A stretch of DNA of 64,000 nucleotides from Candidatus Micrarchaeota archaeon CG10_big_fil_rev_8_21_14_0_10_45_29 (GTDB lineage Archaea; Micrarchaeota; Micrarchaeia; Anstonellales; Anstonellaceae), in the NCBI GenBank assembly GCA_002778455.1, contig PFCD01000001.1:53445-117444 (forward strand), given 5' to 3'. Of this stretch, positions 21,327-38,036 are shown in pieces; the first letter of the stretch is position 1, and each line of letters starts with the position of its first letter. The position numbers and the translations under genes were made by a program. Below the pieces are notes generated by a model that saw only the letters and a list, made by a program, of their open reading frames with translations, searched no databases and was not told the DNA's origin.

Positions 21327-23048
21327 ATGCTGCAAAAAATAATCTTATTTATTGAAACCCTCCCCTTTCACCGCATTTACAAAGGGGAGAGAAGAATTCA
21401 AATAAATGAAAATTTGCAAAAATCCCAAGCCCCCCTCCCCCCAAGCGCATTTCTTAACATAATTGCCCTTCTCTCGCTTGCCTCTCTCCCCCTCTCATTT
21501 TTTGCAGGGCTTTTCCTTTTCCCCTCATTTGAGGGCGCGGCAGGCATCTCTCTCATAATTTTTTCCCTCTGCCTTTATTGCGGCTTTCTTATTCCCAAAC
21601 TGCTCTCAACCCGCCAAGCGCAACTTGCTGAAGCTGATTTGCCGCTTGCATTGCGCGCAATCTCGCTTCATTTGCGAATAGGCGTTTCTTTTGAAAAAGC
21701 CATCGAGCATGTTGCCATCTCAAATTACTCATGCTCCAAAATATTTGCGGATGCCATGCGCCAAATAGGTTCCGGCGCATCTGTTCCTTCCGCCCTCTCA
21801 AAAGCCGCCGCAAGCATCTCATCAGTTCCAATAATGCGCGCCTTTCACCAGCTTTGCGCGGTATATGAGAGCGGCGCAAAGCCGGACGCCCTTGACTCCC
21901 TTGCGCAGGAGCTTATTTCCCGCCAGCACACGCAAATAAAATTGCAGGCATCGCGGGCGGCAATTTTTTCCCTTCTCTTTGTTGCCGCCTCCTCCCTTCT
22001 CCCCGCCTTTTTCCTTATCCTCAACATCTCGGCCGGCCCGCTGCTTGGCTTTAAGGGCGAGCCATTTCAAATATGGGCATTTTACCTTCTTCTTCTCCCT
22101 GCAATAAACATCCTTGCCCTCGCGCTTGTAATCGCCTCCGCCCCCTCCCTCGCCTCATCGCAGAAGCAAAAGCAAATATTAAATGAGGCAAAAATTTTGT
22201 GCGAGAAGGCCGGCTTTCCTCCCTTTAGCACAACCCACCTTATTCTCTCAAGCATTTTGCTCTGCGCCGCCGGCTTTATCCTCCCCTCTTTGCTCGGGGT
22301 TTCCTCCCTCTCCCCCCTTTTTGCCCTTCTCTTTGCATCCCTTCCCTCCCTCTCAAAAGCATATTTTGAGGGAAAAGCAACAGCAGACGCCTCCTCAATA
22401 GAGCAGGAGCTTCCAGGCATGCTTTTTTCAGGCGCAACAAGCCAGAGTTTCTCTTTGGAGAAAATGCTCTCCTCCGCGCGCGCCGGCTCTCCTTTGGCAG
22501 AGCAGTCAAAAAAGGCATTGCGCCAAATAAATGCAGGCGCCAACCCATTATTCGTGCTTGAAAAATGGGCAAATTCAACCTCTTCCCCCTCACTTGGGCG
22601 CGCCCTTCTTTTGCTGATGATTGGCTACAAAACAGGGGGAAGCATGCAAAAGGCGCTCTCTTGCGCGGCAGATGATTTGCTCTCCTCACTTGCGCTTGTG
22701 AGGGAGAGGGCGGCGCTTCTTTCTATTCAAAATTACACAATCTTAGCCGCTTCCGCCTTCCTCATCCCGGCAATTTTGGCGGTTTCCCTCTCATTTTCCT
22801 CCCAAATATCGCAAATAAGCGCGCCTTCGGCAACAGGGGAAAATTCCATTTATTCTATTTTTGATTTCTCCTCCTCATCCTCCCTCATAGCCGCCGCCCG
22901 CGCCGCCATTCCCGCCTATCTTATTATAAACGCGGCCCTTGCCGCCTTTTTCATCGCCCTCTCGCAGGGCGCCCGCGAGAAATTTTTATATTATTTCTCC
23001 ATTTTGGCAATAGTTTCCCAAATAGTGTGGCTGATAGCATCCGGGTAA
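21327..23048 (+). CDS. FlaJ/TadC-like polytopic membrane protein with two T2SS-F-like domains
   Basis: It has many TM helices. The T2SSF-like segment is 'LALRAISLHLRIGVSFEKAIEHVA ... SALSKAAASISSVPIMRAFHQL'. It lies immediately downstream of the ATPase with a 3-nt gap. Confidence 0.55.
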   Translation: MLQKIILFIETLPFHRIYKGERRIQINENLQKSQAPLPPSAFLNIIALLSLASLPLSFFAGLFLFPSFEGAAGISLIIFSLCLYCGFLIPKLLSTRQAQLAEADLPLALRAISLHLRIGVSFEKAIEHVAISNYSCSKIFADAMRQIGSGASVPSALSKAAASISSVPIMRAFHQLCAVYESGAKPDALDSLAQELISRQHTQIKLQASRAAIFSLLFVAASSLLPAFFLILNISAGPLLGFKGEPFQIWAFYLLLLPAINILALALVIASAPSLASSQKQKQILNEAKILCEKAGFPPFSTTHLILSSILLCAAGFILPSLLGVSSLSPLFALLFASLPSLSKAYFEGKATADASSIEQELPGMLFSGATSQSFSLEKMLSSARAGSPLAEQSKKALRQINAGANPLFVLEKWANSTSSPSLGRALLLLMIGYKTGGSMQKALSCAADDLLSSLALVRERAALLSIQNYTILAASAFLIPAILAVSLSFSSQISQISAPSATGENSIYSIFDFSSSSSLIAAARAAIPAYLIINAALAAFFIALSQGAREKFLYYFSILAIVSQIVWLIASG

Positions 23049-23203: not shown

Positions 23204-23422
23204 ATGAAGACATATAGCGCCATCATACTAAAAGATGAGGACATGTATGTGGCAAAATGCCCGGAAGTCGGCACAGTCAGCCAAGGCAGTACAATAGAGG
23301 AGGCGCTTGCCAACCTCAGGGAAGCCACCGAGCTCTATCTTGAGGAATTCCCGGCACAATCCTTTTTCCGCCCGCTTATGACTACCTTCGAGGTGCGCGA
23401 GCATGCCCCCTCCCCTTCTTAA
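23204..23422 (+). CDS. hicB: HicB-like antitoxin (UPF0150 family)
   Basis: 'MKTYSAIILKDEDMYVAKCPEVGTVSQGSTIEEALANLREATELYLEE' matches the HicB N-terminal domain consensus. Confidence 0.6.
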   Translation: MKTYSAIILKDEDMYVAKCPEVGTVSQGSTIEEALANLREATELYLEEFPAQSFFRPLMTTFEVREHAPSPS

Positions 23423-23639
23423 GAAAATCTCAGGGATGGAATGCGCCAAGATACTTTGCAAGCACTTCGGTTTCCAAATCGTGCGCCAGAGGGGCAGCCA
23501 CATAATTCTTGCAAAAGGATACGGAGCTGAGCGCAAAGGGACGGTCGTCCCGGCGCATCGCGAACTCAAAATAGGCACCCTCAAGGGCGCCCTGGAGCTT
23601 GCCGGAGTGGACGAGGAGGAATTCTCAAAGCACCAATAG
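23403..23639 (+). CDS. hicA: HicA-like mRNA interferase toxin (YcfA family)
   Basis: 'CAKILCKHFGFQIVRQRGSHIILAKGYGAERKGTVVPAHRELKIGTLKGALELAGV' fits the YcfA/HicA fold motif (GSH...P.H). It overlaps hicB by 20 nt. Confidence 0.65.
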   Translation: MPPPLLKKISGMECAKILCKHFGFQIVRQRGSHIILAKGYGAERKGTVVPAHRELKIGTLKGALELAGVDEEEFSKHQ

Positions 23640-23659: not shown

Positions 23660-24418
23660 ATGGACATAAACGACGCGTGGAAAGACACGTGCAAAATAGT
23701 CCTTGGCGGAGAAATAGGCGATTTGCAAAAATATGAAAAATATCTTCAAACCTATGTCGAGCCAATATATGAGAAAAACTCCTCCCTAAGCCAAAAGAAA
23801 GTAATAATCTCACGTCCGGACTTTTGCAAAAATGCAAAATTCATCTCATTTGACGAGCAGGAAAAATACAACAAGCAAATTTCGGATATAAAACTAAACT
23901 TAAACCAGATAAAAGACATAGATTCAATTCTCTCCTCAATAAGCGAGCAATTTTATTATGCAGGCAACCAGATAACCGGCAACTGCTCAAACATAGAAAA
24001 TTCGGACAATGTGATGGATTCGCATTATGTAATAAATTCAATAGAAATCGCGGGGGGAAAATTTATCGCCTACTCCTCAATGGCGCGCTTTGACGAATAT
24101 TTATTCGGAGTAAACTGGTCGGGGCAGGCAAAATACTGCATAAAATGCTTTGAAACATACAAGCAAAGCCGCTGCTTTGAGACTTTGAGCGTCTGGACAT
24201 CCTCCGACTGCTATTATTCTGCCCGCCTTGAGGGATGCGGCGACTGCATATTCTCATTTAACCAAAAGCACAAAAACAACCTTATAGGCAACCTGCAATT
24301 TCCAAAAGAAGAATATGCAAAACGCAAAAAAGCGCTTCTTGATCAGATAAGAAGCACTCTTGAGAGCAAGAAAAGAATACGCTCAATACTTGAGATAATG
24401 GGGGGTGTCAATGGGTGA
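23660..24418 (+). CDS. Cys-rich paralogue, A-module only (252 aa), unit 1 of the array; unknown family
   Basis: The N-terminus is 'WKDTCKIVLGGEIGDL..YEKYL', followed by 'KSSLSQK', 'IKDIDSI' and 'FYYAGNQITGNCSNIENSD'. Then come Cys ladders ('SSDCYYSARLEGCGDCIFSFN') and an 'IGNLQFPKEEY' tail. It is homologous to the other seven genes. Confidence 0.7.
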   Translation: MDINDAWKDTCKIVLGGEIGDLQKYEKYLQTYVEPIYEKNSSLSQKKVIISRPDFCKNAKFISFDEQEKYNKQISDIKLNLNQIKDIDSILSSISEQFYYAGNQITGNCSNIENSDNVMDSHYVINSIEIAGGKFIAYSSMARFDEYLFGVNWSGQAKYCIKCFETYKQSRCFETLSVWTSSDCYYSARLEGCGDCIFSFNQKHKNNLIGNLQFPKEEYAKRKKALLDQIRSTLESKKRIRSILEIMGGVNG

Positions 24419-25175
24419 GCAAATAGAGGGCGCATTCTCCTCGGTCACTTCAATTCTTTTCGGCAAAGCCCTCCAAAAAATTGACGACTACGGGGATTGG
24501 CTTTTGAAAAATCGAAGAAAGATAAGAACCGTAAAATCCACAATAAGCGGCAAAGAGGAGCTGATACCTCCGCTGGAGTTTCACCACGCAATCGACAGGG
24601 TATATGTTACAAACGAAGAGGCATTCAAACTCGGGGAAACAAAAGCAAAAAAAGAGGACATAGAAAAAACCACCATCCAAAACGCGGACAAAACACTCAA
24701 AAACATCCTTTATTACTCTCCCGACGTGCAAATGGGAAAAAATCAGGAAATGGAATTTTGCGCCCACTACATTGACTGCCAATTTTGCTACAAATCCGTC
24801 TCCATGGGGCATGTAAAATATGCTGCTTACTCTTTTTGGCCCCGCGACTCGGAATACATGTTTGGAGTGGACACCGTATTCTCCTCAAAATTCTGCATAA
24901 AATGCTACAATTCGGTAAATTTAACCCGCTGTTTTGAAACCTCCCACTCCTCCCATTGCTCTGACTGCTATTTCTGCCACAACTGCGACGGCTGTTCCGA
25001 GTGCATGTTTTGCACAAACGCAAAAAGCCTTCGCTATGCAATATTCAACAAACAATATCCAAAAGAGGAATACTTAAAACTCAAAAAGAAAATACAGGAA
25101 GAAATCTTCGCAAAATTGGAAAAAGATAAAAAATTAGACTTAAACATATTCAATTTAGGGTGCTATAAAAAATGA
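24405..25175 (+). CDS. Cys-rich paralogue, B-module only (256 aa), partner of 23660..24418
   Basis: 'FGKALQKIDDYGDWLL', 'YSFWPRDSEYMFG' and 'HCSDCYFCHNCDGCSECMFC' (7 Cys spaced CxxC) are present. The tail is 'YPKEEYLKLKKKIQEEIFAKLEKDKKLDLNIFNLGC'. It overlaps the upstream gene by 14 nt. Confidence 0.7.
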   Translation: MSMGEQIEGAFSSVTSILFGKALQKIDDYGDWLLKNRRKIRTVKSTISGKEELIPPLEFHHAIDRVYVTNEEAFKLGETKAKKEDIEKTTIQNADKTLKNILYYSPDVQMGKNQEMEFCAHYIDCQFCYKSVSMGHVKYAAYSFWPRDSEYMFGVDTVFSSKFCIKCYNSVNLTRCFETSHSSHCSDCYFCHNCDGCSECMFCTNAKSLRYAIFNKQYPKEEYLKLKKKIQEEIFAKLEKDKKLDLNIFNLGCYKK

Positions 25176-26767
25176 AATACTCGCAAGCCTACGAAGGGCT
25201 CAGCAAGGAATGGAAAAACACCTGCCGAATCCTGCTAAAAGAAGAGATAGGGGAGCTTAGCGACTTCAGTGGCTATCTCCAAAAATATATAGAGCCAGTA
25301 AGGGCGCAGAAATCATCGTTAAGCCAAAAGAGCATTACTCTCTCCAATGACGCCGCCTGTCCCCCAAAGAGAGTCATCGGAATGGAAGAGCTTGGCGTTT
25401 ATGCCAAAAAAACAGAAAAAATAAAGCTGGATATTAACCAAATCAAAGACATAGACTCCATTATCTCTTCTTTAGAGGAGAAATTTTATTATTGCGGAAA
25501 CGTCGTGCTCGGAAACTCAAGCAACGTGGAGAATTCCCACAGATGCACAAACACCAATTACGCACTAGCATCCCACGAAGTCGCGGATTGCCAGTATATC
25601 TCAAATTCAACAATGGCGAGATATTGCGAGTACATATTCGGTTCAAGCATTATGGGTGAGACAAAATACCTCATAAACGTCCTCTATTCTACAAAATCCG
25701 TGCGCTGCATGGAATGCACCCACCCCCTCCGTTCTTCCGACTGCTATTTCGGGGCAAACCTTGAGGACTGCTCCGACTGCATGTTCAGTTTCAATCTCAA
25801 GAATAAGAACAATTCCATCGGCAATCTGCCTCTTGAGAAAAGTAAATATATGCAAATAAAACAGAAGCTCTTATCCGAAATCGCCCGGAAGCTAAAAAAG
25901 GAGAAAAACATGCGTGGAATAATCGAGCTTATTGCCGGAATTCCAAGCCCTTCAACGCCAAAAGAGCGCCCCGAATACGTTTTCAAAACACAACACCCGC
26001 CTTCCAAGGAGGTGGAGGAGGCATTTCAAGCCACAACCAAGGTGCTTTTGGGAAAGCCCCTTTCAAATCTCCAGACATATGAGAAATATTTGCTTGCAAA
26101 CACGAAAAAACCCATCTCAGCCAAATCAGCCATAAGTTCAAAGCCCCTGCACGCAATCCCCATGCTCTTTAACCGGGAGCTGAAAAACTCCTTTGTAAGC
26201 CGGGATGAAGCTGCAGAGCTGTCCTCAAGGCGCATAAGCCCGCAATCCGCCGATGAACTAAGCCTTGAAAACATGGATAAAATCCTTCATGAGATCAAAT
26301 ACACTTGCCCTCAGGTAATTCTTGGAGAAAATGAGGATGTTGAAGAAAGCGTGGTTTACAACACATCAAGGCACTGCTACGGGGGCTCGGTGTATTATTT
26401 TGCAAAATATTGCGCCTATTGTTTCTGGCCGCGCAATTCCGAATACATCTTTGGTTCCACCTCCGTATTCTCATCAAAATTCTGCCTCGCTTGCCACTAT
26501 TCAAGCTCCCTTACCCGATGTTTTGAGCTTAGCGACTGCAACAACTGCTCCGACTGCTATTTCTGCCACAACGTGGAAAATTGCACAGAATGCATGTTCT
26601 GCTTCAATACAAAAGCCAAAAGATACGCAATCGGGAACGTGGAATATCCAAAGGAGGTATACTTAAAACTCAAAAAGAAAATACAGGAAGAAATCTTCGC
26701 AAAATTGGAAAAAGATAAAAAATTAGACTTAAACATATTCAATTTAGGGTGCAAAAAAAATGGATAA
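25172..26767 (+). CDS. Cys-rich paralogue, fused A+B form (531 aa)
   Basis: The N-half matches 23660 ('WKNTCRILLKEEIGEL', 'IKDIDSI', 'FYYCGN'). The C-half matches 24405, and its last 31 aa are encoded by 93 bp identical to 25071..25163. There is an ATGA overlap with the upstream gene. Confidence 0.75.
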   Translation: MKYSQAYEGLSKEWKNTCRILLKEEIGELSDFSGYLQKYIEPVRAQKSSLSQKSITLSNDAACPPKRVIGMEELGVYAKKTEKIKLDINQIKDIDSIISSLEEKFYYCGNVVLGNSSNVENSHRCTNTNYALASHEVADCQYISNSTMARYCEYIFGSSIMGETKYLINVLYSTKSVRCMECTHPLRSSDCYFGANLEDCSDCMFSFNLKNKNNSIGNLPLEKSKYMQIKQKLLSEIARKLKKEKNMRGIIELIAGIPSPSTPKERPEYVFKTQHPPSKEVEEAFQATTKVLLGKPLSNLQTYEKYLLANTKKPISAKSAISSKPLHAIPMLFNRELKNSFVSRDEAAELSSRRISPQSADELSLENMDKILHEIKYTCPQVILGENEDVEESVVYNTSRHCYGGSVYYFAKYCAYCFWPRNSEYIFGSTSVFSSKFCLACHYSSSLTRCFELSDCNNCSDCYFCHNVENCTECMFCFNTKAKRYAIGNVEYPKEVYLKLKKKIQEEIFAKLEKDKKLDLNIFNLGCKKNG

Positions 26768-27518
26768 CCTAAATGGCGTATTCAAGCAAACCTGCAAAAC
26801 AATCTTCGGCAAGGAGATAGGCGATTTGAAAAACTATGAATCCTACTTCAAGGAGGCAGTTCCCGGCATGGAGGTAAAATCCGCCTTCTCAGGGGAAACC
26901 GCCTTCGCGGCGGCAGACGACTACGCAAAGGGCTCAAAATTCTACAACTACCAAAAGGAAATAGATAAAATCTCAACCCTAAACAAGCCCTTTAACATAA
27001 ATGAAATAAAAGACATAGACTCCCTCATAAACGCCACCCGCGAGCGCTACGTCTATTCCTCAAACAAGATTTTGGGGAAATTTGAGAATGTGTCTGCATC
27101 GGATGTAATAATTGACTCCATAAACATTGTCGGAAGCGCAAACCTCTCAAAATGCAAAAACGCAGCCTTTTGCTTTCTGGCAAGAGAATCTCAAAACGTA
27201 TTTGGGTGCGCTTCATTCGGCTTTGATACAAATGTGATTCGCAGCTGCTACCACAAAAACAACGCACGAACTTTTGAGTGCGCGGTTGAGGAATACTTAA
27301 GCGACTCCCTTTTTTGCTACAATGTGTTCAATTCGTCCGATTGCATATTCTGTTTCAACCTAAAAAACAAGAAAAACATGGTAGCGAATATACAGCTTAC
27401 AAAAGAGCAATACTCGTCCAAAAAGGCGGACTTAATTGAGCAAATCACCTCTGAATTGGAGTCAAAGGGCAGGCTTGACTTTAGCATAATGGGTTTGAGC
27501 GGGCGTTTGCATGGATGA
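26760..27518 (+). CDS. Cys-rich paralogue, divergent A-module (252 aa)
   Basis: 'FKQTCKTIFGKEIGDLKNYESY', 'INEIKDIDSLI' and 'SSDCIFCFNLKNKKN' are present. It overlaps the upstream gene by 8 nt. Confidence 0.65.
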   Translation: MDNLNGVFKQTCKTIFGKEIGDLKNYESYFKEAVPGMEVKSAFSGETAFAAADDYAKGSKFYNYQKEIDKISTLNKPFNINEIKDIDSLINATRERYVYSSNKILGKFENVSASDVIIDSINIVGSANLSKCKNAAFCFLARESQNVFGCASFGFDTNVIRSCYHKNNARTFECAVEEYLSDSLFCYNVFNSSDCIFCFNLKNKKNMVANIQLTKEQYSSKKADLIEQITSELESKGRLDFSIMGLSGRLHG

Positions 27519-28284
27519 ATTTGAGAAATCATTTGCACAAACGACAAAAATTCTTCTTGGGGCAGAGCTTGGCTCTTTTTATGATTATTCAAAGTGGCTT
27601 TCTGAGCATGTGTTTTTACCTTATTGCGCAAAATCAAAAAAATCGGGAAAAGAAGTGTGGCTTGCACCCTCGCGGGACTTTCTTGGAAAAAAGTTTGACG
27701 CCGCCCGCATTGTCTCAATGGAGGAGGGGGAAATAAACAAAGAGAACTCCTACTCTTACGAGGACATAAAAGATGCGGATTTGAACTCATTTAGAACTAA
27801 ATTCTGCGAGCCAATAGCCCTGTATCTTGGGAACTTTCGCTACAAAACACATCAAAATGCTCTCAAATCTTCGGGAACAGGAGATTGTGTGAATGTGTAT
27901 ATGGGGGAAGATGTTTATCACGGTGCGCGCAACATCGGCTTTTGCAAAAGCATGCTATACTGCGAAAACATATTCGGATGCCGCGAGGGCACAAACTGCA
28001 AATACTGCATAAACTGCTACGGCTCAACCTACCTCACCAGATGCTTTGAGATGGATTCATGCACAAAATGCTCTGACTCATACTTCTGCCACAACTGCGA
28101 AAATTTGGAAAACTGCCTCTTCTGCTTCAACTCAAAAGGATTGCACTACGCAATAGCAAACATAGAAGTGGGAAAAGAAAAATACATGGAAATAAAAAAG
28201 AAAATCCTCACAGAAATTTCCCAAAAGCTTGAAAAAAACAAAAAACTTGACATAAGCATATTCAACATAGGTGCAAGAAAATGA
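27511..28284 (+). CDS. Cys-rich paralogue, B-module (257 aa)
   Basis: The core is 'TNCKYCINCYGSTYLTRCFEMDSCTKCSDSYFCHNCENLENCLFCFNSKGLHYAIANIEVGKEKY', and the tail is '..KLEKNKKLDISIFNIG'. It overlaps the upstream gene by 8 nt. Confidence 0.7.
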   Translation: MDEFEKSFAQTTKILLGAELGSFYDYSKWLSEHVFLPYCAKSKKSGKEVWLAPSRDFLGKKFDAARIVSMEEGEINKENSYSYEDIKDADLNSFRTKFCEPIALYLGNFRYKTHQNALKSSGTGDCVNVYMGEDVYHGARNIGFCKSMLYCENIFGCREGTNCKYCINCYGSTYLTRCFEMDSCTKCSDSYFCHNCENLENCLFCFNSKGLHYAIANIEVGKEKYMEIKKKILTEISQKLEKNKKLDISIFNIGARK

Positions 28285-29846
28285 GCCAAATAGCAGACGA
28301 GATAAACAAATCCTGGCACGAGACATTCAGGATTCTCTTTGGAACCGATTGCAAGCACAACCTTGAAGAACTCTCTGAATGGCTCTTTCGCGACCATTAT
28401 CCGCCCATGTACGTAAAATCCTCAATTTCCGGCAAACCAGTTACCCTCTGCTCCACAAGATACTCGAAAACTTCAAAATTCATCTCGCAGGAGGAAATAA
28501 GCTATTCCAGAAAGCACCGGCTAGACATAAACAAAATCAAGGATATTGACTCAATTCTTGAGGCAATAGAAGATCGCGCATATTATGCCGGAAACAAAAT
28601 ATTCGGCTCCACAACCAACAGCGAGTCCTGCGACAACATAACCGATTGCCACTATGCATACCATAGCTCTGTATGCTCCCAGTCAAAGCAGCTGGGCTAC
28701 TCTTCATACGCGCGCGACAACAGCGAATACTCCTTCGGCTCTGAAATACACAGCAAAGGCAAATACCTAATCCGGGTTTTGGGGGCCGCCGGCCTGGCCC
28801 GCTGTTTCGAGTCATACATAATAACCAATTCCTCTGACCTTTTCTATACTTTCGACTGCTCTGGCTGCGACAACGCAATGTTTTCCTTCGGCCTGCGCTC
28901 CAAACGATATTGCATAGGCAACCTGCCCCTCGAAAAATCCAAATACCTGCCCCTGAAGAAAAAACTCACCCAAGAAGCGGCAGAATACATAAACAAGCAC
29001 AAAACCTTCCCATCAGTATATGATTTTCCACCCCCAGACAAGTCCAAAATAAAGCCGCTTTCCATAACGCCTACTCTTGCCCCAAAAATGGATTTCAAGC
29101 CCATTGACGAGGCTTTTGAAACCGCCACCAAAGTAATCCTTGGAAAGCCCCTCTCCCCTGTAAAAAATTACCGGAAATTCCTCACAAAGCGCTCGGATGC
29201 CGTGCAGATAATAAAAACTATATTCGGAAGCGAGGGCCTCTACTCCAAGTACTCATGGTATCGCGCCGTCCCCCACGAGCGCGCAATAACCATGGCAGAG
29301 GCGCGCGAGATGGAAAGCCGCCACATAACTTTGAGCGAATCCGAAAATCTGGGCTCAATACTTAAAAAATGCGAAGCCATCGCCTTTTACGCAGTGGATT
29401 TCAAGGAGGGGCAGAACACAAACAACTCATACACCCAGGTGGAATTCAATGCCATAAACTCATACATGTGCGGGGATGTTACCTACTCAAAAAACGCGGC
29501 ATTTGACACAATGGCCTTCCACAGCGAGGCGGTGTTCGGCTGCTTTAGGGCAATACACTCCAAATATTCAATCCGCTGCCATGACTGCTTCCAATTAACC
29601 GCCTGCATGGACATGGACTCATGCTCCTACTGCTCAAATTCAATGTTTTGCCACAACTGCGAAAACCTTGAGAACTGCATGTTCTGCTTCAATGCAAAAA
29701 GCCTCAAATACGCCATAGGCAACGTGGAAGTAGGGAAAGAAAAATACGCCGAGATAAAAAAGAAAATCTGCGATGAAATATTAGCCCAAATAGAAAAAAA
29801 CGGGGATTTGGGCTTTGACATATGCGATTTAGGGTGCAAAAAATGA
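28281..29846 (+). CDS. Cys-rich paralogue, fused A+B form (521 aa)
   Basis: There is an ATGA overlap with the upstream gene. The A-half has 'WHETFRILFGTDC', 'INKIKDIDSI' and 'YYAGNKIFGSTTNSESCDN'. The B-half has 'FETATKVILGKPL' and 'CSNSMFCHNCENLENCMFCFNAKSLKYAIGNVEVGKEKY'. Confidence 0.75.
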   Translation: MSQIADEINKSWHETFRILFGTDCKHNLEELSEWLFRDHYPPMYVKSSISGKPVTLCSTRYSKTSKFISQEEISYSRKHRLDINKIKDIDSILEAIEDRAYYAGNKIFGSTTNSESCDNITDCHYAYHSSVCSQSKQLGYSSYARDNSEYSFGSEIHSKGKYLIRVLGAAGLARCFESYIITNSSDLFYTFDCSGCDNAMFSFGLRSKRYCIGNLPLEKSKYLPLKKKLTQEAAEYINKHKTFPSVYDFPPPDKSKIKPLSITPTLAPKMDFKPIDEAFETATKVILGKPLSPVKNYRKFLTKRSDAVQIIKTIFGSEGLYSKYSWYRAVPHERAITMAEAREMESRHITLSESENLGSILKKCEAIAFYAVDFKEGQNTNNSYTQVEFNAINSYMCGDVTYSKNAAFDTMAFHSEAVFGCFRAIHSKYSIRCHDCFQLTACMDMDSCSYCSNSMFCHNCENLENCMFCFNAKSLKYAIGNVEVGKEKYAEIKKKICDEILAQIEKNGDLGFDICDLGCKK

Positions 29847-31426
29847 GCGAACCCCTGCAAACCCTAGAGCGCAAATTCAAGGAGACCTGCAAAATAGTCC
29901 TCGGGGAGCCAGTAGGCGATTTGCAGGAATTTCTCCCATGGCTTTCAATCCATCCGGGCCAAATCAGCGCCAAAAAATCAAGCGTATCCGGAAAGCAGGT
30001 GGTATTTACCCGGATGGAATACGAAGGCAACCGCTTTATCAGCCTAGATGAGGTTGATTTCAGCAAAAAATACCCAAAAATTAATCCGGCCAGCATGGCA
30101 GGAATTGTTTCACTGGCAAAAACTCTTTCAGACCGTTTTTATTATGCAGGAAACCTGATTCTGGGCAATTCAAATTTTGTGGAGAGCAGCACAAACATAT
30201 CTGATTGCCATTATGCCTATGAAGCAATACAGGCAACCAATTCAAAATACATATTCAAGTGCAACCACGGGCGCGAGGACGATTCCCTATTCGGGGTTTA
30301 CGGCTCCGGGGAATCCTCATTCTGCCTAAGCTGCAGCCAGCTTGTGAGGGTAAAGCGCAGCATGGAAACATGGGTGAGCAACAACAGCTCGGATTGCTAT
30401 TATTGCTACGGGCTAGACAGCTGCAGCAACTGCATCTTTTGCTTCCATCTCAAAAACCGGCGCTATTGCGTTGGAAACGTGCAGCTTGAGCCAGAGGAAT
30501 ACGACCGGATAAAGCAAAGGCTATTATCCGAAATCAGGGGAATTCTAAAAAAGGAAAAAAAGATTCCCAGCCTTGTAGACGTTGCAAGAAAATGCAGGCT
30601 TTCAATACCCCCCCTATCCCAAACACGCCGGGACGAGAATTCAACTGAAGTTACAAACAAGAGGAGAATCGAGAACGAATTCGCGCTAACCTTTCTGGTA
30701 TTGTTTGGGCATGCCCCGGAAAGCATAGACAAATACGAGCAATTCCTCAGGCGCCACGTGAGGCTCAGCCAAACATGCAAGTCGGCGGCAAGCGGCAAGA
30801 GCATTGAGATGTGCACCCATGCCCTATTCAGGATAAACCTCCCGCCAGAGAGAATCCTCTGCATGGCAGAGGCGGAAGAACTGGGGGAGAAATACGACAT
30901 TGGCAAGGATGCGGCGCAAACCATATCAATGCAAAATGCTCATGAGAAAATATCCAAAATCGCCTTTTTCGACGCCGATTTCTGGGAGGGGCAAAATTCA
31001 AACATAATAGACTGTGTAGTGCCAGTAGAATCCTCCGACTGCTACAAATCCGTAGCCATGGTATATTCCAAAAACTGCGCATACACCTTCTGGCCTGTAA
31101 ATTCCTCAAACTGCTTTGGCTGCGACACCATCTTCCATTCCTCCAGCTGCATAAACTGCTACCACTCCGTAAAACTCTCCCGCTGCTTCGAGCTGGACTC
31201 CTGCCGCGACTGCTCAGACTCCCTTTTCTGCCACAACATAGAAAACTGCTCAAACTGTCTTTTTTGCTTTAACGTAAAAGCCAAAAGATACGCAATAGGC
31301 AACGTGGAATACCCCAAAGAAGAATACCTAAAACTCAAAAAGAAAATACTCATGGAACTTTCCCAAAAGCTTGAAAAGGATAAGAATCTCGATATATCCA
31401 TATTCAACATAGGGTGCAAAAAATGA
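29843..31426 (+). CDS. Cys-rich paralogue, fused A+B form (about 527 aa from the ATG at 29843)
   Basis: The likely start is 'MSEPLQTLERKFKETCKIVLGEPVGDLQEF', which overlaps the upstream stop as ATGA; the ORF track extends it to 29822. The B-half has 'YTFWPVNSSNCFGCDTIFHSSSCINCYHSVKLSRCFELDSCRDCSDSLFCHNIENCSNCLFCFNVKAKRY'. Confidence 0.75.
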   Translation: MSEPLQTLERKFKETCKIVLGEPVGDLQEFLPWLSIHPGQISAKKSSVSGKQVVFTRMEYEGNRFISLDEVDFSKKYPKINPASMAGIVSLAKTLSDRFYYAGNLILGNSNFVESSTNISDCHYAYEAIQATNSKYIFKCNHGREDDSLFGVYGSGESSFCLSCSQLVRVKRSMETWVSNNSSDCYYCYGLDSCSNCIFCFHLKNRRYCVGNVQLEPEEYDRIKQRLLSEIRGILKKEKKIPSLVDVARKCRLSIPPLSQTRRDENSTEVTNKRRIENEFALTFLVLFGHAPESIDKYEQFLRRHVRLSQTCKSAASGKSIEMCTHALFRINLPPERILCMAEAEELGEKYDIGKDAAQTISMQNAHEKISKIAFFDADFWEGQNSNIIDCVVPVESSDCYKSVAMVYSKNCAYTFWPVNSSNCFGCDTIFHSSSCINCYHSVKLSRCFELDSCRDCSDSLFCHNIENCSNCLFCFNVKAKRYAIGNVEYPKEEYLKLKKKILMELSQKLEKDKNLDISIFNIGCKK

Positions 31427-32148
31427 AAAAAAAGAAACAGCCCCAAGAAATTCAAAAAACCGACTCAAAGCTCAAAGCCGCAACCATTGGCTTCTACCAC
31501 CAAAACTGCCAGACAAGCATAAGCACCGAAAAATTCCCCCACATCACTTTGGAGCAGGTAAGCCCGGTGGTATATTTCAGAAGGGAAAAGGACTGGATGG
31601 ACTACAGCCTCATATGGAACGTAAAGGCCGAAAAAGAGTCCGAATTAGAAGAATACTTAAATTATATAAAAAAGCGAAACGACACAAAGCGCCTCTCCAT
31701 ACTGAACAAATCAGGCACAGAAGCCCTCATCCTCCTGCGCTTCAAATCCCCCTCCTCAAGCTATGAAAAAGTCCTTGAGAGCGGCACAATCCCCACCTCC
31801 CCTGTAATAGCAAAAGAGGGCTTTGAGACATATAATTTGCTTGCAATAAATCCGAAGGGAATCAAAAACCTCTCAAAAGAGCTTGACGCCATAGGGGACG
31901 TGAAAATGATGCGCGTGGGCGAATACAAAAATTCCGGCGACTTGCCATCCCTTACCCACAAGCAAAAAGACGCGCTCATAATGGCGATGATAAACGGCTA
32001 TTACAAATGGCCGAAAAGCACAAATCTTGAAAAGCTCTCAGAGCTTGCAAACATATCCAGAAGAAGCATGCAGGAGAGGCTGCGCCGCGCCGAATCCAAG
32101 CTTTTTCCCCATTTAATCAAAAAACACGTAAAAAAGGGCGAAAAATAG
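31423..32148 (+). CDS. HTH_10 (bacterio-opsin-activator/Bat-type) helix-turn-helix transcriptional regulator embedded in the Cys-rich gene array
   Basis: The C-terminal 'LTHKQKDALIMAMINGYYKWPKSTNLEKLSELANISRRSMQERLRRAESKLF' matches HTH_10 strongly. The probable ATG at 31423 overlaps the upstream stop (ATGA). The ORF track start at 31414 would require a GTG start. Confidence 0.7.
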   Translation: MKKKKQPQEIQKTDSKLKAATIGFYHQNCQTSISTEKFPHITLEQVSPVVYFRREKDWMDYSLIWNVKAEKESELEEYLNYIKKRNDTKRLSILNKSGTEALILLRFKSPSSSYEKVLESGTIPTSPVIAKEGFETYNLLAINPKGIKNLSKELDAIGDVKMMRVGEYKNSGDLPSLTHKQKDALIMAMINGYYKWPKSTNLEKLSELANISRRSMQERLRRAESKLFPHLIKKHVKKGEK

Positions 32149-32160
32149 GGCATATGCCCT

Positions 32161-33783
32161 ATGCAAGTTTATTACATTAAACTCCCTTATCCATATATGC
32201 CTGAACCCCTAGACACGCTGCAACAAAGATGGGATGCCACATGCAAAATATTGCTAGGCGAGCCGATAGGCGCTTTGCAGGATTACAGGGAATGGCTTCT
32301 GGAGCTCACCGAACCCCTCCACCACACCGCCTCCTCAATTTCCGGCAAAAAAACCACATACTACGTAACCAAATACGAAAAAAATTCAAAAAGAATCTCA
32401 TTTGAAGAGATAGATTTTGCCAAAAATTACCCTGCCCCAAATATGGATGCAAAAAATATACAAGAGCTTCTTAACTCAATCTCCGGCCGTTTCCACTACG
32501 CTGGAAACATAATTCTTGGAAAATGCGGCGCAATAGAAAAATCCTCAAATTTGCAAAACTCGTTTTACATGCTTGAGTCCGGCAACTACGACGGCTGCAA
32601 ATACACGGCATACTCTACGGTGGGCAGATTCTCCGAGGACTCATACGGGGGAAACGGCATAGGAAACTCATCCATAGTGCTAAAGTGCAAAGAAACTTTT
32701 GAGAATAAACGCTGCCTTGAGGCATGGATGAGCCAATATGTATCTGACTGCTACTACTCGTACGCTCTTGCAAACTGCTCTGACTGCATGTTTTGCTTCC
32801 ACCTAAAGGGCAAAAAGCACTGCATAGGCAACCTGCAATTAACTCCTGAGCAATACAAGCAAATTAAGAAAAAACTCCTCTCCCAAATGCTCTCCTACTT
32901 AAAAGAGCACAAGCGCCTTCCCTCTTTGGCGGAAATTGCCAGAAATTCAAAATTGGACAAATCCATAATAGAAAAAATAAAATTGCCAGAGTCAAAAAAA
33001 GAGAAAAAAGATTTGCAGGAAATAGAATCTGCCTTCAAAAAAGCCTGCAAACTCATTTTCGGAAAAGAGCTTCCTGGCAAAATAGACGATTATGGCAAAT
33101 GGCTCTCCACAAACAAGAGGGAAATAAAATCATACAAATCCGCAATTTCGGGAAAGCCAGTATTCATTGGTGACTACTGCGCCCTCTTTGATTTGCCAAA
33201 AGACCGCCTCCTAGGGGCGGATGAAGCCCCAGCATTCGCGCAGGCGGCGCATCTCTCTTTAGAAGAAGTGCAAAGCCTTGAATTTTCCAAAATAACCCAA
33301 ATACTTGGGAAAATCGCCTATTTCTCCCCAGAATATTACGAGGGCGCAAGCGCGAACATAATAGACACTCCAACGGCAATGGATTCCTCCAACTGCTACA
33401 AAACATTTGCAACCGTATGGGCAAAATATTGCGCCTATGGCTTCTGGCCGCGAAGCTCCGAATACATTTTCGGCTTTGACACCTGCCTCTCCTCCTCCTT
33501 TTGCATAAACTGCTACAATTCCACCAGCCTCACCCGCTGCTTTGAGATGGACGGGTGTGCAAACTGCTCGGATTCATACTTCTGCCACAACTCAGAATCA
33601 CTCTCAAACTGCCTCTTCTGCTTCAACGTAAAGGCAAAGCACTATGCAATTGGAAACGTAGAGGTGGGAAAAGAAAAATACGAAAAAATAAAAAAAATGG
33701 TTTTGGAAGAAATTGCGAAAAAGCTTGAAAAAGAGAAAAAGCTAGAATTAAATATCTACAACATCGGCTCTTTAAAAAAATAA
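32161..33783 (+). CDS. Cys-rich paralogue, fused A+B form (about 528-540 aa)
   Basis: The N-terminus is 'LQQRWDATCKILLGEPIGALQDYREWLL'. The B-half has 'FKKACKLIFGKELPGKIDDYGKWL', 'YGFWPRSSEYIFG', 'CANCSDSYFCHNSESLSNCLFCFNVKAKHYAIGNVEVGKEKY' and the tail 'KLEKEKKLELNIYNIG'. The true start may be the ATG at 32197. Confidence 0.75.
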   Translation: MQVYYIKLPYPYMPEPLDTLQQRWDATCKILLGEPIGALQDYREWLLELTEPLHHTASSISGKKTTYYVTKYEKNSKRISFEEIDFAKNYPAPNMDAKNIQELLNSISGRFHYAGNIILGKCGAIEKSSNLQNSFYMLESGNYDGCKYTAYSTVGRFSEDSYGGNGIGNSSIVLKCKETFENKRCLEAWMSQYVSDCYYSYALANCSDCMFCFHLKGKKHCIGNLQLTPEQYKQIKKKLLSQMLSYLKEHKRLPSLAEIARNSKLDKSIIEKIKLPESKKEKKDLQEIESAFKKACKLIFGKELPGKIDDYGKWLSTNKREIKSYKSAISGKPVFIGDYCALFDLPKDRLLGADEAPAFAQAAHLSLEEVQSLEFSKITQILGKIAYFSPEYYEGASANIIDTPTAMDSSNCYKTFATVWAKYCAYGFWPRSSEYIFGFDTCLSSSFCINCYNSTSLTRCFEMDGCANCSDSYFCHNSESLSNCLFCFNVKAKHYAIGNVEVGKEKYEKIKKMVLEEIAKKLEKEKKLELNIYNIGSLKK

Positions 33784-33792
33784 GAAAAAAAA

Positions 33793-35538
33793 CTACTCCA
33801 GCGGCCCCCTGCCCTTAAAATACGTCTTCTCGCCGGTATAAGGGTCATGCTTTATGCCCAAATCAACATTTATCCAATCCTGCGTATCAACCGTGCGGGT
33901 TATCATGGGGATAATATATTTTTTGCCGTCATATAGGCGGGCAATGCATTCGCGGGTATGCAATTTCACAAACATTTCCCTCTTGGAGGCATCAAGCTCG
34001 GAAGGACTGACGCTTCGCTTGAAAAATTCCTCCACCTTTATATCCATCATGGATGAGAGAAGGCGCGCATCCTCTTTTGTAACGCGAAAAGCGAATATGT
34101 TGCGCGCATTTGAAATAAGGGCATCAAGCACCTCTTTTGAGAGTTGCCCCAAATACTGGGCGGCGGCATAAGTGTATAAATTAAACTTGCGCGTCTCTGC
34201 CAAAATGTCTTTTACAACCTTTGTCTCAACAGTGGGAAATTCATCCACTATAAGCATGGTTTGCATTTTTAGCTTCTCGCTAATCGCCATCATATACATC
34301 TGATTCACTATGGCGCCAGCAAAAAATTTGATTATCCTGCGCCCGAAAAAGTGGGGGTTGAAAGAGACGATTGTAAGCCTCTCGTTTTGCACTATTTTTC
34401 CCAAATCTTCCAAATGCTTTGCCTTTCCCAAATAAAGCATGTATTCGCCTATGAAATTTGTGACGGGCAATATGGCGTCGTTGAAATGGTGCATATAAAT
34501 GTCCTGAAATTCCTTGTCAAAAAACCGCTTTACCTCGTCATTTTGGCTCATGGCGGTGAATTCCATTCTTTTTGAAGAGTCGGTAAGAAGCAAATTAATA
34601 TTCTCAAGGTTCAAATCGTTGATGTCTGCCAAAAGGTGCACAGAGTAAAACACCACTCTCTCCGCGTATTTTGACTCCTGCGCTATTGTGGAGGTAATAA
34701 GCTGAGCAACCAATTGGGTGATAAGCGGGCTTTTTCCTGTGCCCACGTCAAAGGGCTCCACATAATTGTTGCGAAAGTCAATTATTTTCGCGTCAGGGAA
34801 ATATTTTGCAAATTCTCCGTGCGGGTCCACAACAACTATTCGCACATCTTTGTATTTTTGCAAAACCGCTTTTATGAGTATTTGTATAAATTTGGATTTT
34901 CCGCTTCCCGAAGTGCCTACAATGATGCCGTGCTGGAAAACGTCAAAATTATTTACCCCTATGCGCGCGCTGTCGCTCACAAGCACGGGGTTTGGCGACT
35001 CCAAATAAACCGCCTTGGGAATAGGGTCAAGCAATTCTATGTAAAAGAGGGGGTTGTTCTCAAGGTCTATCTCCAAAAATTTCATGGGGTTTGTAAGCGC
35101 AAGCATCCCGCGCCTCCCCCCGTAATCCACAAAATTTCCAAAGCCGTAGTAAATGCCAAAGAATTTTATGACTCTAATCCTTATCTCCTCAACATTTTCC
35201 TTTATCAAAAAGTTGAAGAAATTTGTGCCGCCTACAACTTTTGTTCCAAGGGAAAATTTGCTTTTTGAGAGCTCGAGGGGCGCCGGGTCGTTTATCCTGA
35301 AAGGAAACATCAATGCCGACTGCCCGTATATGTTGTCTTTGTCCTTGATAAACATCTTTATGGTGTTGTTATACCTTTTTATTACAAATTCCACTCCGCG
35401 AAAAGAGAAAGCGCGCGATAGGTCTATTGCCTCCAGGAGCGGTATATGCTTTTTTGTAAGCATGTCAAATGTGCGCTTGTAATCCTCCGAAGTTATTTTT
35501 GGAGCGTAAATGGAGAGCTCTGCGTATTTTTTTGCCAT
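33793..35538 (-). CDS. HerA/VirB4-like (DUF87/AAA_10-type) P-loop NTPase
   Basis: Walker A is 'GIIVGTSGSGKSKFIQIL'. 'VVVDPHGEFAKYF' is a HerA/VirB4-type motif and Walker B is 'MLIVDEFPTV'. 'RKFNLYTYAAAQ' is an arginine-finger/Q motif. No NurA partner is seen nearby. Confidence 0.65.
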   Translation of the reverse strand: MAKKYAELSIYAPKITSEDYKRTFDMLTKKHIPLLEAIDLSRAFSFRGVEFVIKRYNNTIKMFIKDKDNIYGQSALMFPFRINDPAPLELSKSKFSLGTKVVGGTNFFNFLIKENVEEIRIRVIKFFGIYYGFGNFVDYGGRRGMLALTNPMKFLEIDLENNPLFYIELLDPIPKAVYLESPNPVLVSDSARIGVNNFDVFQHGIIVGTSGSGKSKFIQILIKAVLQKYKDVRIVVVDPHGEFAKYFPDAKIIDFRNNYVEPFDVGTGKSPLITQLVAQLITSTIAQESKYAERVVFYSVHLLADINDLNLENINLLLTDSSKRMEFTAMSQNDEVKRFFDKEFQDIYMHHFNDAILPVTNFIGEYMLYLGKAKHLEDLGKIVQNERLTIVSFNPHFFGRRIIKFFAGAIVNQMYMMAISEKLKMQTMLIVDEFPTVETKVVKDILAETRKFNLYTYAAAQYLGQLSKEVLDALISNARNIFAFRVTKEDARLLSSMMDIKVEEFFKRSVSPSELDASKREMFVKLHTRECIARLYDGKKYIIPMITRTVDTQDWINVDLGIKHDPYTGEKTYFKGRGPLE

Positions 35539-35725: not shown

Positions 35726-36862
35726 ATGGGACAAACAACACAAAACGCAAAAGAGGCGGCTTCAAATTATTCCAATCCCACACTTAGCGTGCTGGGCTCC
35801 CATTCCGCGCTCGACATCTGCCACGGCGCAAAAGCGCACGAGATTCCAAACCTTGTAGTATGCCAAAAGGGGCGGGAAAAAACATATTCCCAGCATTACA
35901 AGGCGCGCGAAAACGCCATAGGAAGCCAGGGATGCGTTGATGAGATTCTTCTTCTTGAGAAATTCAAAGACATTGCAAACTCGGACTCGCTGGAATTTTT
36001 GAAAAAAAAGCAGGCAATATTTGTGCCTCACCGCTCTTTTTCCGTATATGTGGGGTATGATAAAATAGAGAATGAATTTGAAATCCCTATATTTGGCAAC
36101 CGCTATTTATTGCGCGCAGAAGAGAGGGGTGAGAAAAACAACCAGCGCGATTTGCTTATAAAAGCCGGAATAAAGGTGCCAAAAACCCTCGCCTCGCACG
36201 GGGAAATAAACTCTCTTTGCATAATAAAGGCAAGCGAGGCAAAGCGAAGCTATGAGCGGGCATTCTTTTTTGCATCCACTCCTGCGCAATACGAGGAAAA
36301 ATCAAAAAAAATGGTAGAAAAAGGAATAATTACAAAAGAGGGGCTTGAAGGGGCGCTAATAGAGGAATTTGCACTGGGCGCACCCTTTAACTTCAATTAC
36401 TTTCTCTCTCCCCTCACAGGCGAGCTTGAATTATTGGGAATAGACACGCGGCGCCAGACAAATTTGGACGGCTGGCTTCATCTGCCTGCAGAACAGCAGC
36501 TTGAAATCTCCAAAATGGCAAAAGTAAACAATATAGAGGCAGGGCACATCGCCTGCACAATAAGGGAATCTTTGCTTGAGCAGGTATTTGAAATAGGCGA
36601 GAAATTTGCAAAAACATGCAAAGAAGAATATTCTCCGGGCCTAATAGGGCCCTTTGCATTGCAGGGCGCGCTCGTGCCGGGCGAGAAGGGCGAGGAAATT
36701 ACAATATTTGACGTATCCTTCAGGGTGCCCGGCTCACCGGGCACAAGATTCACTCCATATACCGAATATTTATTCGGCAAATCCGCCTCCGTGGGCTCGC
36801 GCATAGCACTGGAAGTTTCCCAAGCGCTAAAAACCGGCAAAATAGAGAGAATAATAACATAA
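35726..36862 (+). CDS. PurP paralogue (ATP-grasp, FAICAR synthetase-like, DUF1246/DUF1297)
   Basis: It aligns along its whole length with PurP-type proteins: 'LSVLGSHSALDICHGAK', 'VPHRSFSVYVGYD', 'IFGNRYLLRAEER', 'IDTRRQTNLDG', 'IRESLLEQVFEIG', 'IGPFALQ' and 'SFRVPGSPGT'. Confidence 0.7.
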   Translation: MGQTTQNAKEAASNYSNPTLSVLGSHSALDICHGAKAHEIPNLVVCQKGREKTYSQHYKARENAIGSQGCVDEILLLEKFKDIANSDSLEFLKKKQAIFVPHRSFSVYVGYDKIENEFEIPIFGNRYLLRAEERGEKNNQRDLLIKAGIKVPKTLASHGEINSLCIIKASEAKRSYERAFFFASTPAQYEEKSKKMVEKGIITKEGLEGALIEEFALGAPFNFNYFLSPLTGELELLGIDTRRQTNLDGWLHLPAEQQLEISKMAKVNNIEAGHIACTIRESLLEQVFEIGEKFAKTCKEEYSPGLIGPFALQGALVPGEKGEEITIFDVSFRVPGSPGTRFTPYTEYLFGKSASVGSRIALEVSQALKTGKIERIIT

Positions 36863-36983: not shown

Positions 36984-38036
36984 ATGATAAGCAGAAAAGA
37001 AATAGAAAAAGTGCTTAAAAGCTATGACAAGAAAAACCTCTCGCTCGCAACTTTGTGCTCACACTCCTCCTTGCAAATTTTTTACGGCGCAAGAAAAGAG
37101 AAGGTGCACACAATAGGGCTAGTTACAAATGAGGCGCAAAAAAAGCTTTATGACGCATTTCCAAAGGCAAAGCCGGATGAATTTATAGAAGTGGAGGATG
37201 CAGAGGATTTTCCTGAAAGCGAGCTTCTCTCAAAAAACGCGCTTATCATCCCGCACGGCTCAATAGTGGAATACACCGGCGACCTTTTGGATGGGCTAAA
37301 GGTGCCTGTGCTTGGAAACCGATTGTCTTTGCTATGGGAAAAAGACCGCACAAAAATGTTTGAATGGATGAAAAAGGCAGGATTGCGCACCCCTCTAATA
37401 TTTAACCCCGATAAAATAGACCGCCCATGCGTTGTAAAGCATTTGGGGGCAAAAGGGGGGCGCGGATACGCCATAGTGCACTCGAGCGAGGAATTTCATT
37501 CAAAATTTGAAAATGTAAAAGGGGTAATGGTGCAGGAATACCTCACAGGGGTGAGAGTATATCCGCATTATTTCTACTCCCCTCTCTCAAAAAAAGGATA
37601 CAGGGCATCCGGCGGGCATCTTGAGATGATGTCAATTGACAGGCGCTTTGAGTCAAACATTGATGAGAGCTACCGCACCATGATGGCGGGGGTGCCCATA
37701 AAGGCATCCTTCACCGTAGTAGGAAACGAGCCGCTTGTGTTGCGCGAATCCTTATTGCCTGAAGTGCTTGAAATGGGAAAAAACACTGTTGAGGCGGCAG
37801 ACAAATTATTTGGCGGCATACCCGGGCCCTTCTGCCTTGAGCTGATAGTGGACGAGACTTTGCAATTTTATGCCTTTGAAATAAGCGCGCGAATAGTTGC
37901 AGGCACCAACATATATCCCGAAGGCTCGCCCTATTCCGTGTATTCGTTTGATGAGAATATGAGCACTGCGCGAAGAATTGCAAAAGAAGTAAAAGATGCT
38001 GCCAAAAAAGATATGCTTGAAAAAATTGCCTACTGA
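36984..38036 (+). CDS. purP: 5-formaminoimidazole-4-carboxamide ribonucleotide (FAICAR) synthetase PurP
   Basis: It is similar to archaeal PurP throughout: 'ATLCSHSSLQIFYGA', 'GNRLSLLWEKDR', 'GAKGGRGYAIV', 'YPHYFYSPL', 'IDRRFESNID', 'LRESLLPEVLEMG', 'PGPFCLE', 'EISARIVAGTN' and 'SPYS'. Confidence 0.85.
   Translation: MISRKEIEKVLKSYDKKNLSLATLCSHSSLQIFYGARKEKVHTIGLVTNEAQKKLYDAFPKAKPDEFIEVEDAEDFPESELLSKNALIIPHGSIVEYTGDLLDGLKVPVLGNRLSLLWEKDRTKMFEWMKKAGLRTPLIFNPDKIDRPCVVKHLGAKGGRGYAIVHSSEEFHSKFENVKGVMVQEYLTGVRVYPHYFYSPLSKKGYRASGGHLEMMSIDRRFESNIDESYRTMMAGVPIKASFTVVGNEPLVLRESLLPEVLEMGKNTVEAADKLFGGIPGPFCLELIVDETLQFYAFEISARIVAGTNIYPEGSPYSVYSFDENMSTARRIAKEVKDAAKKDMLEKIAY

Follow-up and report, generated by a model that had tools for sequence, protein, structure and literature searches.

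The DNA analysed here is a stretch of 64,000 nucleotides (the window) of Candidatus Micrarchaeota archaeon CG10_big_fil_rev_8_21_14_0_10_45_29 (contig PFCD01000001.1, positions 53,445 to 117,444), which carries an array of cysteine-rich genes and, within that array, a gene for a putative DNA-binding regulator that we call REG. There are two homologous kinds of cysteine-rich gene, A (~252 amino acids) and B (~256 amino acids; 29% identity between A and B, E=3e-26), which are encoded either as separate, overlapping genes or as a fused gene, AB (~520-540 amino acids). Between positions 23660 and 33783 the genes run A, B, AB, A, B, AB, AB, REG, AB. As an initial annotation of this DNA had stated, and as the list of open reading frames (ORFs) confirms, REG is flanked by two fused genes on its own strand, the third (29822-31426) and the fourth (32161-33783). 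The elements at the centre of this study are the following.

31423-32148, plus strand: REG gene, 241 amino acids plus stop codon (ORF list, HTH_10 match, homologues, AlphaFold2 model).
31465-31932, plus strand: N-terminal domain of REG, putative sensor, amino acids 15-170 (secondary structure of the model).
31951-32106, plus strand: HTH_10 DNA-binding domain of REG, amino acids 177-228 (PF04967).
32146-32161, no strand: perfect 16-bp palindrome TAGGGCATATGCCCTA, candidate operator, which includes the REG stop codon TAG (32146-32148).
32162-32167, plus strand: TGCAAG, a 6-nt spacer at the position of a transcription factor B recognition element (BRE), read from the sequence.
32168-32174, plus strand: TTTATTA, a TATA-like box whose centre lies 26 nt 5' of ATG 32197.
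32161-33783, plus strand: AB gene directly 3' of REG, the conserved partner; its start is probably ATG 32197 (Met13).

The start codon of REG (ATG, 31423-31425) shares the tetranucleotide ATGA with the stop codon (TGA, 31424-31426) of the 534-amino-acid cysteine-rich ORF upstream, the overlap that had been annotated originally; the only alternative upstream in-frame start, GTG 31414, likewise falls inside that cysteine-rich gene. The gene coordinates given at the outset hold, but the protein is 241 amino acids long rather than 242, the latter figure counting the stop codon. Residues 177-228 match the Pfam family HTH_10 (PF04967) at E=9.5e-15 (54.6 bits, gathering score 23.1, profile positions 1-52 of 53), in agreement with the C-terminal HTH_10 motif first recognised in the sequence. 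The same profile matched all 31 aligned REG homologues, and a helix with the sequence SRRS-QERLRRAE, in the region of the recognition helix, is invariant among them (alignment A2). As had also been proposed, the N-terminal ~170 amino acids are unassigned: Pfam and NCBIfam scans gave no match for residues 1-176. For REG as a whole, we found no match in a sequence-profile search of PDB chains or in the NCBIfam and PADLOC libraries. An AlphaFold2 model (mean pLDDT, the predicted local confidence score, of 87) consists of an alpha/beta N-terminal domain and a helical helix-turn-helix (HTH) domain. Full-length homologues of REG (n=67) share 41-73% identity, and those with named organisms all belong to Micrarchaeota, Micrarchaeia or Anstonellaceae. 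From these sequence comparisons, we conclude that REG is a real gene for a conserved, predicted DNA-binding regulator of the HTH_10 type, and that its family is, as sampled, specific to Micrarchaeota and related DPANN (Diapherotrites, Parvarchaeota, Aenigmarchaeota, Nanoarchaeota and Nanohaloarchaeota) archaea.

REG is conserved together with a neighbour. In the neighbourhoods of three distant REG homologues, a protein of ~530 amino acids without a Pfam match is encoded directly downstream on the same strand, and these proteins are 37-45% identical to the window protein of 32161-33783. We then scanned synteny by tblastn in 28 loci (designated by L numbers), with one genome per species, and counted the 24 DPANN loci that contain a near full-length REG or a REG remnant; contig ends limit several of these neighbourhood assignments. 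An AB gene adjoined REG in 19 of the 24 species-level loci (39-73% identity). It was directly downstream on the same strand in 15 of the 24, divergent and directly upstream of REG in three, and directly upstream in one, where the contig ends after REG; no AB gene adjoined REG in the other five. Across genomes, the AB orthologues that follow REG are 37-50% identical to the window AB, and the chromosomal neighbours vary while the REG-AB pair stays. Metagenome loci containing REG showed AB adjacency in every case (15/15), and among metagenome loci anchored on AB, REG was present in 15 of 79. Only a subset of lineages has further AB paralogues upstream of REG (the window, L001, L007, L010, L011, L014 and L032), and the REG-AB pair is kept without an upstream array in L003, L005, L015, L019 and L029. 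Because the adjacency recurs and the upstream array is lineage-specific, the conserved core is REG plus one AB gene, and on this comparison the upstream array is best described as a lineage-specific elaboration of that core.

The main new result of this analysis is a conserved palindrome with a fixed promoter geometry. The palindrome at 32146-32161 has the family consensus TTGGRCRTATGYCCAA; wherever REG and AB are co-directional in the loci that we inspected, the spacer between them contains this element. Every such locus, like the divergent and REG-only loci, has exactly one copy, beside REG. We found 38 matches in 1.40 Mb of sequence from 117 sources, with at most one per source; shuffled sequences gave 4-10 matches, which were scattered. 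All but one of the 38 lie at a REG or AB promoter, the exception being L034 (Acidiplasma). Variants of the motif track REG clades (GGGCATATGCCC, TTGGACATATGTCCAA and TGACATATGTCA), the TGACATATGTCA variant being found in two distant cases, the second REG-AB pair of L035 and the Woesearchaeota locus L027. In addition, a GTCCAA half-site occurs 8 nt 5' of the palindrome in the clade of L020, L022 and L024-L026. The 64-kb window contains one copy of the palindrome, and none of the upstream array genes (23660-29846) has one in front of it. Because this one copy precedes the downstream gene, REG probably acts directly on AB 32197-33783 and not on the whole array.

The geometry around the palindrome is constant. 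The order palindrome, 5-7 nt, AT-rich 7-8-mer, ~22-24 nt, ATG recurs in 22 aligned promoters, and the distance from the end of the motif to the ATG of the downstream gene (AB, or REG in other lineages) is 35-38 nt in most loci and 30-45 nt overall; in four promoter rows the homologous Met was used instead of an earlier in-frame ATG, which gives 35-45 nt. These elements were assigned by eye against general archaeal rules, and 32162-32197 would accordingly contain the BRE and TATA box of a putative promoter. The ATG at 32161, which is the start of the longest ORF for AB, falls inside the palindrome; it is probably not the true start, because the Met of the orthologues aligns with Met13 (ATG 32197), and the promoter geometry agrees. 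With the centre of the TATA-like box 26 nt before this ATG, the AB mRNA would be leaderless. Where no array lies upstream, REG is preceded by a TATA-like box of its own and by no palindrome. A scan of the window for bacterial-type promoters and terminators was uninformative for an archaeon. Separately, we observed a second conserved element, CCATAWT or CATAAT, ~8-14 nt 5' of the AB start (window 32183-32196), with equivalents in L001, L003, L005, L007, L008, L011 and L019. These resemble the palindrome centre, GCATAT, and could represent a proximal promoter element or an extra half-site.

Since the co-directional clade has the palindrome 0-270 nt past the REG stop codon, and the sequence is self-complementary, it might instead fold, as RNA or DNA, into a hairpin by which the REG transcript is terminated or its 3' end stabilised. 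We consider this very improbable. In the divergent loci L020, L024 and L026 and in the REG-only loci L021, L022 and L025, the site lies 5' of REG, in a spacer from which the two genes diverge and in which no 3' end falls. Moreover, the sequence itself is conserved beyond what pairing would demand, the stem would be just 4-6 bp, and no T run follows. The fixed distance, too, is to the downstream ATG and not to the upstream stop codon. In L058 (518-3200) and L059 (4460-7142), where ~2 kb is inserted between REG and AB, the palindrome stays with AB, ~65 nt 5' of it. A known RNA at the palindrome was likewise rejected, as the window has no Rfam match.

We propose, with moderate confidence and from sequence evidence, that REG is a local one-component transcription factor whose HTH_10 dimer binds the palindrome 5' of the BRE and TATA box and controls the adjacent AB gene, most likely by activating it. 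The C-terminal HTH_10 domain, presumably as a dimer, would bind the 16-bp site, and the window copy would act on AB from ~32197, probably on a leaderless mRNA. From its place at about -51 to -36, directly 5' of the BRE, the site would work like an upstream activating site (UAS). The N-terminal alpha/beta domain, which carries an invariant His-x-x-Cys, would receive the signal; that this signal is redox or metal is a guess. Upstream, every junction in the 8.5-kb run from 23660 to 32148 overlaps, by 4-25 nt (fewer if Met8 starts the ORF at 29822), and the sole gap in the array run is the one between REG and the last AB gene. Because all these junctions overlap, REG is probably co-transcribed with the upstream array, and the co-transcription suggested at the outset is plausible given this tight packing. 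The array and REG would then be switched on together, after which REG would switch the last, ancestral AB gene. The first reading had made REG the regulator of the array. The link to the cysteine-rich family is indeed conserved, but the conserved unit is REG with its adjacent AB gene, and the sole motif lies 5' of that gene; control of the whole array was therefore rejected as the primary reading.

Archaeal activator sites typically lie just upstream of the BRE and TATA box. The UAS of the bop gene, which is controlled by the HTH_10 archetype Bat, was reportedly placed at about -52 to -39 in work by Baliga and DasSarma in 1999. One article (PMC1447603) describes a UAS 5' of bop. The REG site differs from that UAS in sequence and is a perfect palindrome. 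REG could, at the same site, be a repressor or roadblock, which would block access of transcription factor B (TFB) and the TATA-binding protein (TBP), or keep transcription of the array from running on into the last AB gene; in the lineages of the divergent and REG-only kinds the effect would be autorepression. The motif does end 5-7 nt from the TATA-like box, abutting the BRE position, and in six lineages the site is in front of REG itself, negative autoregulation being the commonest logic among local regulators. In the window, moreover, the 8.5-kb series of overlapping genes ends at the site, which overlaps the REG stop codon. Archaeal repressors, however, tend to have sites that overlap with the TATA box or with the start of transcription, or that sit downstream, whereas at each locus the whole REG site precedes the AT-rich box, at a fixed spacing to the TATA-like box that is expected for recruitment of TFB and TBP. 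We therefore regard repression as rather unlikely and favour activation.

Several observations weigh against our model of REG as a local activator of AB. Binding of the motif by REG rests on co-location and co-variation, and another factor could bind it. A site that abuts the BRE could mean repression rather than activation. The upstream array genes carry no motif, so REG may not control them. No fold could be assigned to the REG N-terminal domain: a Foldseek comparison of this domain with the PDB gave weak matches only (template modelling, or TM, scores of 0.23-0.37). Furthermore, a radical SAM enzyme gene replaces AB as the partner in three loci. Of the five REG loci without AB, L021, L025 and probably L022 have a divergent gene for a B12-binding radical SAM protein (L021 3021-4547, minus strand; L025 7413-8894, minus strand; L022 1-~55, minus strand), and the other two are short Woesearchaeota contigs. 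The three belong to a distant REG clade (39-42% identity), in which the REG family appears to have switched partners; the spacer between REG and the radical SAM gene contains the palindrome variant TTGGACGATCGTCCAA or TTGGAACTATGTCCAA. Finally, many single AB genes, together with the ten-gene array of L068/L036, have no REG within reach, and the same is true of L037, L061 and others.

These arrays without REG, together with the hicBA pair that flanks the window array, could mean that the position of REG is incidental, REG being a transcription factor of general or unrelated function, or having come in with a mobile insertion. The co-occurrence check that had been suggested gave a divided answer, with AB beside REG in most loci and the L036/L068 array lacking the regulator. 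We nevertheless judge an incidental position to be extremely improbable, given the recurrent REG-AB adjacency (19/24 loci) and the single copy of the motif. A mobile insertion had been raised earlier as something that would undo the association; viral or mobile origin was rejected: IMG/VR contains no relatives of REG or AB, the GC content of the region (0.43-0.46) is ordinary and inside the range of the window, and the 64-kb window contains no tRNA.

The N-terminal domain of REG is predicted by the AlphaFold2 model to consist of two beta-alpha-beta-beta halves, forming a tandem ferredoxin-like alpha/beta sandwich. Residues H26, C29, S32, E36, P39, W65, E74, Y114 and E135, among others, are invariant in 31 Micrarchaeota REG sequences. 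It had been suggested that the domain could be specific to this system. We searched a profile of the N-terminal domain alone against 1.84 billion representatives and found otherwise: the profile retrieved ~94 clusters (E down to 1e-4), nearly all of proteins of 210-250 amino acids, with a C-terminal HTH_10 domain in 10 of 10 sampled clusters. The H-x-x-C at the end of the first beta strand is kept in most of the distant sequences that we read (for example P0245, P0256, P0265 and P0280). One match is from a Diapherotrites archaeon, and two others would appear from their acidic composition to be haloarchaeon-like. A few distant members matched HVO_2525_N or HVO_A0563_N at 17.8-22 bits, short of the threshold of 27, and one clade member did so at E=0.028; within the Micrarchaeota clade, no REG member attains the gathering score of HVO_2525_N (PF24279) or HVO_A0563_N (PF24280), and the PF24279 match precomputed for P0062 is likewise below threshold. 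Because the profile retrieves HTH_10 proteins with H-x-x-C, we regard the domain as probably a divergent form of the N-terminal domain of small HTH_10 regulators. That its His/Cys pair hints at metal or redox sensing is a guess.

These comparisons place REG among known regulators. It had been called Bat-type, which is correct for the HTH domain only. Bat of Halobacterium, the HTH_10 archetype, is ~670 amino acids long and has PAS/PAC, GAF and BAT domains. Like REG, it carries a C-terminal HTH_10 domain; it acts locally, its gene lying next to those that it controls. REG, however, has 241 amino acids, belongs to a DPANN archaeon and not to a haloarchaeon, and lacks these other domains: PAS, GAF and BAT gave no Pfam match at E<=1 in 31 REG members. 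Because they are absent, REG is not a Bat orthologue. The small (~210-250 amino acids) HTH_10 regulators of the COG3413 type resemble REG, having the same two-domain layout and length, and most of them keep, as REG does, an H-x-x-C in the first strand; a literature search on HVO_2525, HVO_A0563 and COG3413 found nothing. Also alike are the Bat-like NarO and DmsR of Haloferax and Halobacterium, small local regulators beside the operon that they activate. According to Hattori and colleagues, writing in 2016, these two reportedly have a C-terminal HTH_10 domain and conserved N-terminal Cys residues proposed to sense oxygen or redox state. Their targets are respiratory (anaerobic) genes, whereas the partner of REG is a cysteine-rich protein, and the likeness is one of layout and position. 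One article (PMC10062603) describes narO as encoded upstream of the nar operon, which NarO activates.

The partner family, AB, had no relatives in the libraries searched. The window protein of 32161-33783 is 100% identical to the NCBI hypothetical protein COU37_00355, and the family comprises >454 database clusters with several copies per genome; among the best 120 clusters, the named organisms are Micrarchaeota, save one labelled Marsarchaeota, and all the proteins are called hypothetical. Searches for relatives of AB in Pfam, NCBIfam, PADLOC, PDB sequences (noise at E>0.5), PDB folds and the viral folds of BFVD found none, and PADLOC gave no defence-system match for REG, AB, A or B. Our literature search found nothing on the Micrarchaeota REG family, the palindrome or the AB family; the one paper that combined 'Micrarchaeota' and 'cysteine-rich' concerned unrelated eukaryotic repeats. 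In the structural model of AB (pLDDT 81.6; predicted TM score, pTM, 0.83), each half has an alpha/beta N-terminal part, a cysteine-rich stretch with little regular structure (pLDDT ~70) and, at its C-terminus, a long helix. The conserved Cys columns lie 3 and 9 residues apart, often alternating with Ser, and only three Cys are invariant; a solenoid-like Cys/Ser ladder is at least as likely as a metal site. From reading the sequences, we found no N-terminal hydrophobic signal in AB.

The invariant His and Cys of REG and the Cys ladder of AB, with its 9-residue period, would also suit a protein pair, in which AB is a redox or metal sensor or a co-regulator acting through the N-terminal domain of REG. 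The strict pairing of the two families, which both appear confined to the same lineage, fits this idea as well. We nevertheless think it very unlikely, since an operator before AB already accounts for the linkage, and three loci pair REG with an enzyme gene.

The rest of the array lies upstream of REG, with the following members in the ORF list.

23660-24418, plus strand: A.
24405-25175, plus strand: B.
25172-26767, plus strand: AB.
26760-27518, plus strand: A.
27511-28284, plus strand: B.
28281-29846, plus strand: AB.
29822-31426, plus strand: AB paralogue whose stop codon overlaps the REG start; the likely true start is ATG 29843 (Met8).

With ATG 29843 as its start, the 29822 ORF would form another ATGA overlap with the gene before it. 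In a rough neighbour-joining tree (no support values), the AB genes downstream of REG in different genomes group together. The AB genes directly upstream of REG (window 29822-31426, L007, L010 and L011) also cluster, with L035_8001, which is the last gene of the L035 array and does not adjoin a REG. As these paralogues are old, intact and partly positionally orthologous, the array is not recent junk, which upholds the view expressed in the initial annotation that it is no mere junk duplication.

Other loci show how the module varies. In Ca. Bilamarchaeum (L035; CABMJJ010000009.1 275204-292769), REG heads a nine-gene AB/A/B array; past the ATPase gene, the other strand carries a further REG-AB pair, whose palindrome is the variant CTGACATATGTCAG. 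We also noted in L035 two PALP genes (cysteine synthase-type fold) that flank the module. L020 (4914-6284) contains tandem REG paralogues, 39% and 43% identical to the window REG, which lie 3' of one palindrome and are divergent from AB. In L032 (10001-10229), REG is a frameshifted remnant with an internal deletion, of which only amino acids 16-46 and 193-238 match, each stretch in another frame. This locus keeps the ATPase gene, the AB gene downstream and the palindrome.

Genes that flank the window array are the following.

19941-21323 and 21327-23048, plus strand: T2SSE assembly ATPase and T2SSF platform protein (type IV pilus or archaellum type).
23204-23422 and 23403-23639, plus strand: hicB-like antitoxin and hicA toxin, directly 5' of the first array gene.
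33793-35538, minus strand: HerA/FtsK-superfamily P-loop ATPase (DUF87 and TrwB_AAD_bind; Pfam, NCBIfam), convergent with the last AB gene.

The hicA stop codon is 20 nt before ATG 23660. The T2SSE and T2SSF genes are just upstream of this toxin-antitoxin pair, and their adjacency to the array is not kept in other genomes. As side observations, a giant ORF of 2182 amino acids (11424-17972, plus strand) has HATPase_c (amino acids 1672-1798) as its only Pfam match and is followed by a 234-amino-acid ORF without matches. On the other side, 35726-36862 (plus strand) encodes a PurP-like protein (DUF1246 and DUF1297; an archaeal purine-synthesis enzyme), and 36984-38036 (plus strand) looks, by reading of the sequence alone, like a PurP paralogue. 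Two PurP-like neighbours are consistent with an archaeal chromosome.

The ATPase recurs beside the module. The protein of 33793-35538 gave weak matches to CedD, VirB4 and HerA models and generic HerA/mad8 P-loop matches in PADLOC. Orthologues (49-59% identity) occupy the same convergent place in L001, L007, L008, L011, L013, L014, L023, L032, L035, L036 and several metagenome loci, and in L036 the orthologue is kept after an array without REG. The ATPase is thus a recurrent neighbour and may be a third component of the system. A far more ambitious interpretation, which we offer as speculation and consider unlikely, is that REG, the palindrome, AB and the HerA/FtsK-like ATPase make up an undescribed, Micrarchaeota-wide system. 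AB would then have a new fold, in which a solenoid with a Cys/Ser ladder of 9-residue period joins a duplicated alpha/beta domain, and the ancient, positionally conserved arrays of paralogues would serve as a diversified set, perhaps for handling metals or redox chemistry or for contact with the host cell. The ATPase would assemble or export AB, and REG, sensing the trigger with its His-x-x-Cys, would turn on the ancestral gene.

The tiny symbiotic Micrarchaeota, like other DPANN archaea, have for the most part not been cultured, and no function is known for the bulk of their lineage-specific genes. REG by itself is an ordinary type of regulator; its worth lies in the pairing with AB and in the candidate operator. 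Very few cis-regulatory elements have been predicted in DPANN archaea, and the palindrome adds to them; REG with this candidate operator permits a simple in vitro test, the protein on the 16-bp site. The pairing of REG and operator would offer a route to the conditions under which the AB family is expressed, and the REG-operator-AB module may thus open this large family of orphan DPANN proteins to experiment for the first time.

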